From Escherichia coli (lineage in GTDB: Bacteria; Pseudomonadota; Gammaproteobacteria; Enterobacterales; Enterobacteriaceae): a stretch of 64,000 nucleotides of DNA. Within the stretch, counting starts at the first letter, position 1. Every line of letters begins with the position of its first letter. Under the pieces are notes generated by a model that did not search any database, was not told where the DNA came from, and saw only the letters and a program-made list of their open reading frames with translations. Positions 5,056 to 27,072 of the stretch are shown piece by piece. Made by a program: the position numbers and the translations under genes. Location: NCBI RefSeq assembly GCF_013315695.1, contig NZ_CP054353.1; one strand, given 5' to 3'.

Positions 5056-5901
5056 ATGTCCACGACATGGTTTGTAGGAGCCGACTGGCTCGCCGAACAT
5101 ATTGATGACCCGGAAATTCAGATTATCGATGCCCGCATGGCGTCGCCTGGACAGGAAGATCGTAACGTTGCTCAGGAGTATCTGAATGGACATATTCCCG
5201 GCGCAGTGTTTTTTGATATCGAAGCGCTTTCTGATCACACTTCCCCGCTTCCGCACATGCTGCCGCGCCCGGAAACGTTCGCCGTGGCGATGCGTGAATT
5301 AGGCGTTAACCAGGATAAGCACCTGATTATCTATGACGAAGGTAATCTTTTCTCAGCCCCACGAGCATGGTGGATGCTGCGCACCTTTGGTGTAGAGAAA
5401 GTGTCGATTCTGGGGGGTGGACTTGCAGGCTGGCAGCGCGATGATCTGCTGTTAGAAGAAGGTGCAGTAGAGCTGCCGGAAGGAGAGTTTAACGCCACGT
5501 TTAATCCTGAAGCCGTGGTGAAAGTCACCGATGTGTTATTGGCAAGCCATGAAAATACGGCGCAAATTATTGATGCCCGCCCGGCTGCACGTTTTAACGC
5601 AGAAGTTGATGAACCTCGCCCAGGTTTACGTCGCGGACATATTCCCGGTGCATTGAACGTTCCGTGGACGGAACTGGTGCGCGAAGGCGAACTAAAAACG
5701 ACCGATGAACTGGATGCGATATTTTTTGGTCGCGGCGTCAGCTATGACAAACCGATTATCGTCAGCTGCGGCTCTGGTGTAACGGCAGCCGTGGTTTTGT
5801 TGGCACTCGCGACACTTGATGTGCCAAACGTGAAACTGTACGACGGCGCATGGAGTGAATGGGGCGCACGAGCAGATTTACCGGTTGAGCCCGTAAAATA
5901 A
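5056..5901 (+). CDS. sseA: 3-mercaptopyruvate sulfurtransferase (rhodanese family), 281 aa
   Basis: Internal ATG at 5056 with GGAG 5 nt upstream; product starts MSTTWFVGADW. The track ORF 4897..5901 is a longer upstream extension. Confidence 0.93.
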   Translation: MSTTWFVGADWLAEHIDDPEIQIIDARMASPGQEDRNVAQEYLNGHIPGAVFFDIEALSDHTSPLPHMLPRPETFAVAMRELGVNQDKHLIIYDEGNLFSAPRAWWMLRTFGVEKVSILGGGLAGWQRDDLLLEEGAVELPEGEFNATFNPEAVVKVTDVLLASHENTAQIIDARPAARFNAEVDEPRPGLRRGHIPGALNVPWTELVREGELKTTDELDAIFFGRGVSYDKPIIVSCGSGVTAAVVLLALATLDVPNVKLYDGAWSEWGARADLPVEPVK

Positions 5902-5916
5902 GCTTTTTACAGGCAA

Positions 5917-5947
5917 TAAAAAACCGCCGAATTTGGCGGTTTTTTAT
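5917..5947 (+). terminator. Intrinsic terminator downstream of sseA
   Basis: GC hairpin CCGCC(gaattt)GGCGG followed by a run of six T. Confidence 0.7.
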
Positions 5948-6005
5948 TGCTGGTCTGGTTCGCGGCCTTTCCAGCAGGTTGTATTACTGCAAGTGTATCT
6001 CGTCT
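5917..6005. repeat. Intergenic repeat module, copy A (terminator hairpin + GGTTCGCGGCCTTTCCAGCAGGTT + GCAAGTGTATCTCGTC)
   Basis: Near-identical about 60-bp segment recurs at 6961-7025, and the 16-mer GCAAGTGTATCTCGTC recurs at 7206-7221. Confidence 0.75.
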
Positions 6006-6028
6006 ACTCAATACTCGCTTTATGCATC

Positions 6029-6037
6029 AACGATGTC
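6029..6037. repeat. IS1 copy 1 target-site duplication, left (AACGATGTC)
   Basis: Identical 9-mer directly flanks the other end of the element at 6806-6814. Confidence 0.9.
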
Positions 6038-6092
6038 GGTGATGCTGCCAACTTACTGATTTAGTGTATGATGGTGTTTTTGAGGTGCTCCA

Positions 6093-6368
6093 GTGGCTTC
6101 TGTTTCTATCAGCTGTCCCTCCTGTTCAGCTACTGACGGGGTGGTGCGTAACGGCAAAAGCACCGCCGGACATCAGCGCTATCTCTGCTCTCACTGCCGT
6201 AAAACATGGCAACTGCAGTTCACTTACACCGCTTCTCAACCCGGTACGCACCAGAAAATCATTGATATGGCCATGAATGGCGTTGGATGCCGGGCAACAG
6301 CCCGCATTATGGGCGTTGGCCTCAACACGATTTTACGTCACTTAAAAAACTCAGGCCGCAGTCGGTAA
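6093..6368 (+). CDS. insA: IS1 InsA (transposition inhibitor / N-terminal part of InsAB' transposase), 91 aa
   Basis: ORF translation [37 protein letters not shown]... matches IS1 InsA as I recall it. Confidence 0.95.
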
Positions 6369-6790
6369 CCTCGCGCATACAGCCGGGCAGTGACGTCATC
6401 GTCTGCGCGGAAATGGACGAACAGTGGGGCTATGTCGGGGCTAAATCGCGCCAGCGCTGGCTGTTTTACGCGTATGACAGGCTCCGGAAGACGGTTGTTG
6501 CGCACGTATTCGGTGAACGCACTATGGCGACGCTGGGGCGTCTTATGAGCCTGCTGTCACCCTTTGACGTGGTGATATGGATGACGGATGGCTGGCCGCT
6601 GTATGAATCCCGCCTGAAGGGAAAGCTGCACGTAATCAGCAAGCGATATACGCAGCGAATTGAGCGGCATAACCTGAATCTGAGGCAGCACCTGGCACGG
6701 CTGGGACGGAAGTCGCTGTCGTTCTCAAAATCGGTGGAGCTGCATGACAAAGTCATCGGGCATTATCTGAACATAAAACACTATCAATAA
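6287..6790 (+). CDS. insB: IS1 InsB reading frame (joined to InsA by -1 frameshift to make the transposase), 167 aa
   Basis: ORF translation [21 protein letters not shown]... matches IS1 InsB. A6C slippery motif at 6344-6350 lies in the insA/insB overlap. Confidence 0.93.
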
Positions 6791-6805
6791 GTTGGAGTCA
6801 TTACC

Positions 6806-6814
6806 AACGATGTC
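6806..6814. repeat. IS1 copy 1 target-site duplication, right (AACGATGTC)
   Basis: Matches 6029-6037 exactly. Confidence 0.9.
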
Positions 6815-6960
6815 AAGTAGATAAAAAAGGATAGATTTTGAATTCATTTGGCTTATCAGTCCGAATTCAGACAAATATAAACAAATCCCGCTTAATATTA
6901 AAATATACTAACTGGTAAAAGATATTACTTAAACGTGTAATTTCACTTTCTTTAAACAAC

Positions 6961-7030
6961 AAAAAACCGCCAAAATCAGGCGGTTATTTGTTGCTGGTTT
7001 GGTTCGCGGCCTTTCCAGCAGGTTCACTTG
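6961..7030. repeat. Intergenic repeat module, copy B (includes a terminator-like hairpin at 6961-6992)
   Basis: AAAAAACCGCCaaaatcaGGCGGTTATTTGTTGCTGGTTTGGTTCGCGGCCTTTCCAGCAGGTT is near-identical to 5917-5980. Confidence 0.75.
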
Positions 7031-7285
7031 TGTTGCATGAACAACGCAGGTGCCTCACAGCAAAAGAATACTCGCTGTTAAGAAATTTTGTGTCAAGTAA
7101 AAAACGAGTAATTATTTTTCGGTTAGCGTATTATTGACACCGACCCTTTCCGCCGTCTCGCAAACGGGCGCTGGCTTTAGGAAAGGATGTTCCTTGGCCG
7201 TAAATGCAAGTGTATCTCGTCGCTTGCTATCGCGGCAATATCGCCAGTGGTGCTGTCGTGATGCGGTCTTCGCATGGACCGCACA

Positions 7286-7411
7286 ATGAAGATACGGTGC
7301 TTTTGTATCGTACTTATTGTTTCTGGTGCGCTGTTAACCGAGGTAAATAATAACCGGAGTCTCTCCGGTAACAATTTATTGGTGGTTAACAACCTTCAGA
7401 ACAGCAGGTAA
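7286..7411 (+). CDS. Hydrophobic small ORF inside ryfA, 41 aa (45 aa from ATG at 7274): MKIRCFCIVLIVSGALLTEVNNNRSLSGNNLLVVNNLQNSR; candidate TimP-like small membrane toxin
   Basis: Open frame translated by hand. One predicted transmembrane helix. Lies within the terminated transcript. Weak ribosome-binding site. Below the 60-aa cutoff of the ORF track. Confidence 0.4.
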   Translation: MKIRCFCIVLIVSGALLTEVNNNRSLSGNNLLVVNNLQNSR

Positions 7412-7417
7412 GCCCGA

Positions 7418-7444
7418 ATGCCGCCCTTTGGGGCGGCATATTTT
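7418..7444 (+). terminator. Intrinsic terminator of the ryfA-like transcript
   Basis: ATGCCGCCC(tttg)GGGCGGCAT followed by ATTTT; overlaps the sseB stop codon on the other strand. Confidence 0.75.
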
Positions 7445-8219
7445 AGATTATCCGGTTCTGTTTAAAGTCACGCAAAAAACCACCCCAGCGACGTTCATAG
7501 AATGGCACAATATGTTCGGTAATAAAGTGGCTAATTCCTTTTTCCCCTTTTTTCACCTGACAAATATCGATGGGTTCATCGCCAGGTATTGTATCGGTCG
7601 CTACACTTCCCGCCGCCTGAATAATTTCTTCGATATCACCATCGGCTTCAATGCCAATAAGTAAATTAGGCTGTGCCTCTTCGTTCTCTTTAATTGAACA
7701 AATAAAAGCACGCTTCACCGGCTTAATAGTTTTAAATAAGGTGGTGAGTGAATCAATCATTTGTGCTGGTGGCTCTGCGACTTCCGATAATATCAGCGAT
7801 TCACCGCCCTCCAGTACTTCCTGGCTGCTCAGCGGATTTCCTTCTTCACCAATCAACAAACTGATTTCACGCGGCATAAATTCTTTACCGGTTGGCAGTT
7901 TGGCATTAAGGAAGAGCGTTTCGCCAAGGGTCATCTCAAACAATGTGCGAACGGGCATTACGACAAATGCCTGTTCGTCTTCAACCGCCTGTTGAAGTGC
8001 TTCTAACGAGGTGAAAAAAGGAATGACGCTGGTGCCGTCTTCTTTTTCCCAGTGCTGTAAATCAAGTGCGCTATCTTCAACCACAGCCTCGCCCTGCGCC
8101 GCCGTACCAGGCACCCAGACGGTGGATTCCAGTAGAGTACGGAAAAAGGCCGGGCGGTGCGCCGGTTCGGTTGCTGCTTTTTCCAGCAGGTCTTCAAGTT
8201 CGTTTTTTATTTCTGACAT
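7443..8219 (-). CDS. sseB: Enhanced serine sensitivity protein SseB, 258 aa
   Basis: Track ORF 7443..8228 begins at a GTG; ATG at 8219 gives MSEIKNELEDLL..., which is the N-terminus I recall. Confidence 0.85.
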   Translation of the reverse strand: MSEIKNELEDLLEKAATEPAHRPAFFRTLLESTVWVPGTAAQGEAVVEDSALDLQHWEKEDGTSVIPFFTSLEALQQAVEDEQAFVVMPVRTLFEMTLGETLFLNAKLPTGKEFMPREISLLIGEEGNPLSSQEVLEGGESLILSEVAEPPAQMIDSLTTLFKTIKPVKRAFICSIKENEEAQPNLLIGIEADGDIEEIIQAAGSVATDTIPGDEPIDICQVKKGEKGISHFITEHIVPFYERRWGGFLRDFKQNRII

Positions 8220-8255
8220 AAGAACCACAATTCATTCAACGTTCGGGGCACAAGT

Positions 8256-26286: not shown

Positions 26287-26295
26287 TATCTTGCA
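26287..26295. repeat. IS1 copy 2 target-site duplication (TATCTTGCA)
   Basis: Identical 9-mer at 27064-27072 directly flanking the other end. Confidence 0.9.
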
Positions 26296-26310
26296 GGTAA
26301 TGACTCCAAC

Positions 26311-26814
26311 TTATTGATAGTGTTTTATGTTCAGATAATGCCCGATGACTTTGTCATGCAGCTCCACCGATTTTGAGAACGACAGCGACTTCCGTCCCAG
26401 CCGTGCCAGGTGCTGCCTCAGATTCAGGTTATGCCGCTCAATTCGCTGCGTATATCGCTTGCTGATTACGTGCAGCTTTCCCTTCAGGCGGGATTCATAC
26501 AGCGGCCAGCCATCCGTCATCCATATCACCACGTCAAAGGGTGACAGCAGGCTCATAAGACGCCCCAGCGTCGCCATAGTGCGTTCACCGAATACGTGCG
26601 CAACAACCGTCTTCCGGAGCCTGTCATACGCGTAAAACAGCCAGCGCTGGCGCGATTTAGCCCCGACATAGCCCCACTGTTCGTCCATTTCCGCGCAGAC
26701 GATGACGTCACTGCCCGGCTGTATGCGCGAGGTTACCGACTGCGGCCTGAGTTTTTTAAGTGACGTAAAATCGTGTTGAGGCCAACGCCCATAATGCGGG
26801 CTGTTGCCCGGCAT
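26311..26814 (-). CDS. insB: IS1 InsB reading frame, 167 aa
   Basis: Identical protein to the 6287..6790 ORF. Confidence 0.93.
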
Positions 26815-27008
26815 CCAACGCCATTCATGGCCATATCAATGATTTTCTGGTGCGTACCGGGTTGAGAAGCGGTGTAAGTGAACTGCAGTTGCCATGTTTT
26901 ACGGCAGTGAGAGCAGAGATAGCGCTGATGTCCGGCGGTGCTTTTGCCGTTACGCACCACCCCGTCAGTAGCTGAACAGGAGGGACAGCTGATAGAAACA
27001 GAAGCCAC
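26733..27008 (-). CDS. insA: IS1 InsA, 91 aa
   Basis: Identical protein to the 6093..6368 ORF. Confidence 0.95.
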
Positions 27009-27063
27009 TGGAGCACCTCAAAAACACCATCATACACTAAATCAGTAAGTTGGCAGCATCACC

Positions 27064-27072
27064 TATCTTGCA
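27064..27072. repeat. IS1 copy 2 target-site duplication (TATCTTGCA)
   Basis: Matches 26287-26295. Confidence 0.9.

Follow-up and report, generated by a model that had tools for sequence, protein, structure and literature searches.

An IS1 insertion between sseA and sseB of Escherichia coli was analysed in a 64 000-nt stretch of contig NZ_CP054353.1 (assembly GCF_013315695.1), hereafter the window. This intergenic region holds a timP/timR (ryfA/ryfB) type I toxin–antitoxin locus, and the IS1 has very probably damaged the promoter of the sole timR gene cognate to the resident toxin mRNA, which would reduce the amount of the TimR antitoxin small RNA (sRNA) and partly derepress TimP. The identities of the genes, the match between seed and target, the promoter architecture and the exact site of insertion were read directly from the DNA. 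The system is a known one and the case is a strain-level variant of it; what is specific here is the combination of TimR specificity classes c and a' (defined below) with an IS1 lesion in the cognate timR promoter.

The initial annotation of this stretch had described a module of ∼60 bp occurring twice. This is real: a repeat finder returned a 63-nt direct repeat (5918–5980 and 6962–7024; 84% identity) that was absent from 100 shuffled sequences. Within it, a 24-nt core (GGTTCGCGGCCTTTCCAGCAGGTT) is exact at 5957–5980 and 7001–7024; when up to three mismatches were allowed, it had two matches in the 64-kb window and none in 100 dinucleotide-preserving shuffles. A second repeat, first reported as a 16-mer, is in fact an exact 17-mer (TGCAAGTGTATCTCGTC) found at 5988–6004 and 7205–7221, with two matches in the window at up to two mismatches and none in 100 such shuffles. 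The duplicated unit is longer than first noted, since a minus-strand −10/−35 promoter is also present in both copies (shared boxes AATACTC at 6010 and 7067, and TGTCAAG at 6811 and 7091). When the whole 804-nt intergenic region was used as a query, a median of one matching place was found per E. coli genome (maximum three), all of them chromosomal.

The repeated modules are best described as the predicted bodies and terminators of two paralogous timR (ryfB) antitoxin sRNA genes on the minus strand, here called copy A (5918–6004, ∼87 nt) and copy B (6961–7061, 101 nt), the ends of copy A being modelled on those of K-12 timR. In minus-strand orientation, each module corresponds to the 3′ two-thirds of an sRNA of ∼90–105 nt, made up of a stem-loop (GCUGG...CCAGC) and a rho-independent terminator. 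In copy A the terminator is a hairpin (AAAAAACCGCCGAATTTGGCGGTTTTTT, 5918–5947) that forms an inverted repeat matching the TimR consensus terminator helix and serves both sseA on the plus strand and timR on the minus strand; the exact 24-mer at 5957–5980 (minus strand) corresponds to the conserved core, stem-loop SL2 of the sRNA (GCUGGAAAGGCCGC..ACC.GACCAGC), which is invariant in 13 homologs from six genera. In K-12 MG1655, timR (b4811, 'putative small regulatory RNA TimR') lies on the minus strand and starts 16 nt past the stop codon of sseA, in the same place as copy A. The 97-nt TimR of Salmonella, rebuilt from the in vitro transcription oligonucleotides EHO-1419 and EHO-1420 (PMC7667032, Table S2), showed 81% identity to copy A and 85% to copy B. 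The aligned TimR homologs (13 sequences, representing Escherichia, Citrobacter, Superficieibacter, Yersinia, Erwinia and Rahnella) have in common a 5′ seed of variable sequence, an invariant core, a stem-loop (SL1) and a terminator helix, the last two with compensatory changes. A search of Rfam found no TimR family; copy A was covered there by weak, terminator-driven matches (AgrB, rimP leader, RNAI), which were disregarded.

The toxin mRNA was located at 7140–7444 on the plus strand, where the ryfA model (Rfam RF00126) matched over its full length (model positions 1–296), scoring 313.3 bits (gathering score 80; E = 1.9e-87). It bears an intact timP coding sequence (CDS; 7286–7411, plus strand) for a small, toxic protein of the inner membrane (41 aa), annotated as WP_004974226.1 in the identical record NZ_OZ547117.1, and the same protein occurs in strains free of IS1 at this site. 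Both timR copies lie upstream of ryfA, on the minus strand, and are divergent from it, with no overlap. Copy B occupies the canonical place, with its core ∼139 nt upstream of the ryfA start (−120 to −141 in other genera), while copy A sits one unit farther upstream, as does the annotated timR of K-12. The suggestion of a tandem duplication of the ryfA 5′ region was thus right in that sibling sRNA genes are duplicated, but the duplicated unit is a minus-strand timR gene and not a ryfA leader. K-12 has the same two-copy layout, with timR annotated at the position of copy A; the layout is not peculiar to the present strain. The locus is flanked upstream by sseA, encoding 3-mercaptopyruvate sulfurtransferase (5056–5901, plus strand), and downstream by sseB (7443–8228, minus strand), both being open reading frames annotated in the identical record.

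In Salmonella, the 5′ region of TimR is complementary over a continuous 18 nt to the 5′ untranslated region (5′UTR) of timP, as compensatory mutations confirmed, and TimR blocks timP translation in vitro (PMC7667032). Pairing takes place at stem-loop SL2 of the mRNA and destabilises a pseudoknot required for the initiation of timP translation (PMC11228461, PMC13000454). The Shigella names for the antitoxin are RyfB1 and RyfB2 (PMC5333039). Repression of TimP has been shown for Salmonella TimR and for Shigella RyfB1, and TimR RNA has been detected in strain CFT073 and in avian pathogenic E. coli (APEC). The two timR genes are unannotated in this genome; their annotation, seed and target are now defined. 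We take the 'RyfB' of K-12 overexpression screens to be the shoB toxin RNA rather than the Shigella RyfB/TimR, and this 'RyfB' was not used as evidence.

The two occurrences of the 17-mer had been regarded as two transcription-start contexts, the second lying just before ryfA. The second is instead inside ryfA (+66 to +82 of the match at 7140–7444), and the two are a seed and its target: the first is the predicted 5′ seed of TimR copy A (5′-GACGAGAUACACUUGCA, first 17 nt, minus strand, 5988–6004) and the second is the predicted class c TimR-binding site in the timP 5′UTR (7205–7221, plus strand), which spans the loop of SL2 together with its 5′ arm (the ryfA 'variable region'). Since the copy A seed is the reverse complement of ryfA 7205–7221, the plus strand shows the 17-mer twice in the same orientation. 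The 5′ end of copy A was placed at 6004 by the K-12 rule, i.e. 7 nt downstream of the −10 box. Starts predicted in this way agree within 1 nt with published 5′ ends: the cloning primer for Shigella dysenteriae RyfB1 (CACTGTGGGGTGCCTG) matches the class b seed at its predicted 5′ end, and the 5′ end of the Salmonella in vitro TimR transcript agrees likewise. From its predicted +1, copy A can form 17 contiguous Watson–Crick pairs with ryfA (−31.3 kcal/mol). In contrast, the longest Watson–Crick run between copy B and ryfA is 5 (−16.1 kcal/mol), while the same copy B seed (class a', 5′-GCUGUGAGGCACCUGCG) gives −35.0 kcal/mol against a class a ryfA. These values come from seed-versus-SL2 calculations, in which cognate duplexes range from −31 to −37 kcal/mol and non-cognate ones from −7 to −24 kcal/mol; running RNAduplex with full-length TimR and ryfA yielded unrealistic whole-molecule duplexes and was set aside. 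Copy A is therefore the predicted cognate antitoxin of the resident timP, and copy B, though intact and next to ryfA, is in effect a predicted orphan of another specificity.

Four seed/target classes were distinguished in E. coli, and in each of them seed and target covary. Class a (K-12) shows 16 pairs with its cognate ryfA, one of them G–U; class b (O157:H7, and Shigella RyfB1/RyfA1) shows 15 Watson–Crick pairs, and class c (the present window) and class d (many single-unit strains) show 17 each. Of 20 sampled E. coli loci, 19 contain, alongside ryfA, a timR that matches it; the only one lacking it is that of strain 06-00048, which carries a fusion deletion (see below). Seed and target also covary in Citrobacter, Superficieibacter, Yersinia, Erwinia and Rahnella. 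In Shigella, RyfB1 does not cross-regulate the non-cognate RyfA2 (PMC5333039).

The element inserted next to copy A has all the attributes of an IS1 (IS1A family; 6038–6805, plus strand): a length of 768 bp, terminal inverted repeats, insA and insB with their programmed frameshift, and a target duplication of 9 bp (AACGATGTC, 6029–6037 and 6806–6814). Its left inverted repeat abuts the copy A promoter, in agreement with the earlier statement that IS1 lies ∼30 bp past copy A (33 bp lie between the end of the 17-mer and the boundary of target duplication and IS1, at 6038). In all E. coli timR copies sampled, the promoter reads TTGACA-N17-GAGTAT, even though the spacers diverge. Copy B retains it intact (7068–7096, minus strand; −10 GAGTAT at 7068–7073, a 17-nt spacer, and −35 TTGACA at 7091–7096). 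The −10 hexamer of copy A (GAGTAT, 6011–6016, minus strand) is also preserved; it is conserved in the sampled E. coli and lies 7 nt upstream of the 5′ end annotated in K-12. The target duplication, which reads GACATCGTT on the minus strand, overlaps the −35 hexamer, so that IS1 has turned the latter from TTGACA into CCGACA (6034–6039, minus strand), the two T residues being replaced by the terminal CC of IS1 with no change in the 17-nt spacing. The original TTGACA (6811–6816), together with the A/T-rich upstream promoter DNA (to 6835, minus strand), has been shifted 777 bp away and now faces into IS1. The proposal that IS1 had cut off a paralogous or antisense transcript is therefore correct in that an antisense-type regulator of ryfA adjoins the element, but nothing has been truncated; it is the −35 hexamer that has been struck. 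The timP reading frame and the rest of the locus are unaltered. A possible hybrid promoter reading outwards from the IS1 end (TTGGCA, 6046–6051, minus strand) was considered and discarded as unusable, since it lies 29 nt from the −10 box, which is too far.

The state of the locus before insertion could be read in strain MS 21-1 (NZ_CP146670.1), which has the exact empty site: after removal of IS1 and of one copy of the duplication, there were no differences over 1,323 nt, and its copy A promoter reads TTGACA-N17-GAGTAT. The IS1 junction was found in only 2 of 5,426 complete E. coli genomes, those of AF3 (NZ_OZ547117.1; a blood culture isolate) and MSB1_4I (NZ_LR898874.1), both from human hosts. 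The insertion is rare and appears to be recent. A second IS1 is present in the window (26296–27063, minus strand), flanked by the 9-bp duplication TATCTTGCA at 26287–26295 and 27064–27072; it is intergenic and lies just upstream of an open reading frame beginning MNTLRYFDF.

Taken together, these observations are consistent with the following course of events. TimR would act in trans, its 5′ end pairing with stem-loop SL2 of the timP 5′UTR. Transposition of IS1 into the copy A promoter generated the 9-bp duplication and the change from TTGACA to CCGACA, after which transcription of the cognate TimR would be strongly reduced and translation of TimP partly derepressed. This derepression would be tolerated, because TimP at its native level is not lethal; in Salmonella, loss of timR raises TimP strongly, yet is tolerated.

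Several points weigh against this interpretation. The literature on E. coli still disputes whether ryfA yields the TimP protein. Copy A, like class c in general, lacks the 5′ arm of SL1 that is present in every other TimR, and the sRNA may already have been weaker before IS1 arrived. A generic scan for sigma-70 promoters, which required at least four of six matches to the −10 consensus, flagged no timR promoter, since GAGTAT matches that consensus at three of six positions; the timR promoters were called from conservation and from the K-12 and Shigella 5′ ends. CCGACA retains four of the six −35 positions, and residual transcription is possible. Finally, deletion of timR has little effect on growth in Salmonella (PMC7667032) and little phenotype, with mild effects, in APEC (PMC13188913), so that the insertion may have only a slight effect.

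Some of these points could be taken to mean that IS1 is neutral for timR, either because the promoter depends little on its −35 box and upstream DNA or because read-out from IS1 substitutes for them, so that copy A would still be transcribed at near-normal levels. This is rather unlikely. The residual match of the −35 box, the preserved spacing and the unchanged −10 would all favour it, and the lack of any compensatory change in the 1,323 nt shared with the empty-site strain would suit a harmless event as well as a recent one. However, from what is generally known of sigma-70 promoters, the exchange of TT for CC abolishes two of the three −35 positions that are best conserved, in a promoter whose −10 is weak, and the retention of TTGACA by all E. 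coli timR promoters sampled, although their spacers diverge, argues that this hexamer matters; the distance between the TTGGCA of the IS1 end and the −10 box also counts against substitution by a hybrid promoter. It is more doubtful still that copy A had become a decaying or orphan paralogue before IS1 arrived, with timP controlled by the structural switch in its mRNA, by copy B, or by both, and IS1 being just one more lesion in junk DNA. The missing SL1 arm fits such a decay, as do the orphan status of class c timR in ∼355 of the 394 genomes that carry it, the repeated arrival of insertion sequences in the region, and the good tolerance of timR deletions (PMC7667032, PMC13188913). Yet in the present strain copy A is the only one that fits ryfA (all 17 pairs form, whereas copy B reaches a run of at most 5), a perfect seed match and a consensus −35 in the empty-site allele would not be expected of a decayed gene, and Shigella RyfB1 is known to spare the non-cognate RyfA2 (PMC5333039).

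That the repeats might be generic terminators of the repetitive extragenic palindromic (REP) type, with no sRNA function, is hardly credible. Each module does contain a strong bidirectional terminator hairpin, but the module is confined to this locus (its two copies in the 64-kb window), is invariant beside ryfA across genera, has a conserved promoter and a covarying seed, and matches both the validated Salmonella TimR and the annotated K-12 timR. The initial annotation had itself named REP-like terminators with no transcription start nearby as the outcome that would speak against it; what was found instead is a TTGACA-N17-GAGTAT promoter belonging to each copy, conserved in the four classes and in other genera, so the REP-like reading is refuted. 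Damage by IS1 to the promoter of the cognate timR is the interpretation retained here.

To place the window arrangement within the species, the intergenic region was compared with complete E. coli genomes, being matched in 5,425 of the 5,426. Taking coverage of at least 80% of the two-unit query as a two-unit layout, 2,092 genomes (39%) have it; most of the remainder have a single timR–ryfA unit. The class c ryfA target was found in 39 genomes and class c timR, including its promoter, in 394, so class c timR is usually an orphan. Strain 042 provides an example, its distal timR being of class c and its proximal timR and ryfA of class d. A scan of contigs with the ryfA hairpin pattern GCGGTCNNNGCANNGACCGCAC was too permissive, giving at least 120 matches, mostly due to chance in GC-rich genomes; 13 enterobacterial loci were usable, and no Salmonella was present among the matches listed. 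Full-length ryfA matches (180–271 bits), most of them with an adjacent divergent timR, were also observed outside Escherichia, Shigella and Salmonella, namely in Yersinia (loci L020, L022, L033 and L085), Rahnella (L045 and L083), Erwinia (L063) and Superficieibacter (L021). This range is wider than that stated in the 2017 Shigella paper (PMC5333039) and is consistent with the later timP papers.

The A/T-rich spacer between the two timR units (6825–7003, plus strand) matches the IS128 model (Rfam RF00125) with 166.4 bits, against a gathering score of 80, its 3′ end being the terminator of copy B. Close to the 5′ end of this match, 3 nt stand in place of 33 model positions, and the segment that is absent corresponds to the duplicated ryfA promoter and start present in K-12. 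An IS128 transcript is therefore doubtful in the window, because its 5′ part, the duplicated ryfA promoter of K-12, is missing. In K-12 MG1655 (locus L001, 416–624), the Rfam IS128 model has its start within a 91-nt duplicate that comprises the ryfA promoter and the first ∼17 nt of ryfA; the K-12 'IS128 RNA' looks like a chimeric transcript running from the duplicated ryfA promoter to the second timR copy's terminator. This second K-12 copy (class d, minus strand, L001 ∼583–678) has no RefSeq annotation.

The same ∼0.5-kb region has been struck independently by insertion sequences in other strains. ISEcB1 (IS3 family) lies in the loop of the distal timR/sseA terminator in T7Express/BL21-type strains (L004, 480–520) and in 06-00048 (L007, 40–70 and 1480–1510); since its orientations in the two are opposite, the site has been hit twice independently. 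The TimR copy whose terminator is split by the element is, in BL21-type strains, the cognate one, and in ∼8 of 40 evenly sampled genomes the intergenic match begins at the ISEcB1 site. In strain 1190 (L138, 230–350), which otherwise has the arrangement of the window without IS1, an element of the IS200/IS605 family stands in place of the class c timR terminator hairpin. A different IS1 was found within the IS128 spacer of TUM9812 (L017, 1703–2470; target duplication CCGAATTCA). Deletions were seen as well: in E. coli 06-00048 (L007, 1528–1660), Citrobacter amalonaticus (L094, 8069–8340) and Yersinia similis (L085, 4554–4837), the TimR body is fused to the downstream ryfA at the ∼17-nt seed/target repeat, with loss of both promoters. 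Since it occurs in three unrelated genomes, this fusion looks like a recurrent joint loss of toxin and antitoxin expression. E. coli XJ34 (L011, 600–1800) has two complete timR–ryfA/timP pairs in tandem, of class b and then class a, with a fragment of sseB between them; this arrangement appears to be of the S. dysenteriae ryfA1/ryfA2 type.

The importance of TimR in E. coli has been left open by recent papers on APEC and on uropathogenic E. coli. Two clinical isolates with a promoter lesion, together with an empty-site strain that looks isogenic, offer a ready test of its role. The existence of four classes, the frequency of orphans and the repeated lesions by insertion sequences or deletions may explain the conflicting ryfA and timR phenotypes reported between strains. 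A broader and quite speculative view, which we consider improbable as it stands, is that at least four mutually discriminating TimR/timP classes are kept in the species; that the non-cognate timR orphans (in ∼39% of genomes) serve as pre-emptive, 'anti-addiction' antitoxins directed at timP alleles that recombination brings in, or act on separate targets; and that the isolates bearing this IS1 are naturally derepressed for TimP. If this were the case, these isolates would show directly the physiological role of TimP at its native level.

Among the closest of the systems described to date is timP–timR of Salmonella (Andresen et al. 2020, PMC7667032; PMC11228461; PMC13000454), with which the present locus shares a divergent, non-overlapping toxin mRNA and antitoxin sRNA, a 17–18-nt TimR 5′ seed directed at SL2, a core and terminator that are 81–85% identical, and a timP reading frame starting at about +147. 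It differs in having two timR genes with different seeds, and in that the cognate timR is not adjacent to ryfA but ∼1.2 kb upstream of it (∼0.4 kb without IS1), has a truncated SL1 and bears a −35 box disrupted by IS1. The ryfA1/ryfB1 and ryfA2/ryfB2 pairs of S. dysenteriae (Fris et al. 2017, PMC5333039) are likewise tandem sibling units at the same locus, their specificity residing in the ryfA 'variable region' and the complementary 5′ end of RyfB; RyfB1 belongs to class b and RyfB2 to the K-12-like class a. However, Shigella and E. coli XJ34 have two complete toxin–antitoxin pairs, while the window has two antitoxin genes and one toxin gene, and its classes (c, and the orphan a') differ from those described for Shigella. 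K-12 resembles the window in the order of its parts (distal timR beside sseA, IS128 spacer, proximal timR-like copy, ryfA) and in that the distal copy is the cognate one. It differs in the classes, which are a for the distal copy, d for the proximal orphan and a for ryfA, as opposed to c, a' and c in the window; K-12 also keeps the duplicated ryfA promoter before IS128 and has no IS1, whereas the window lacks that promoter and has the IS1. In the multi-copy type I loci Sib/Ibs and Zor/Orz, tandem sRNA antitoxins also discriminate between toxin mRNAs by means of short, variable pairing regions. Zor/Orz has been listed as a similar arrangement (PMC7667032). Unlike TimR, which is trans-encoded and divergent, the Sib RNAs are cis-antisense RNAs with full overlap, and there is no sequence relationship between the two.

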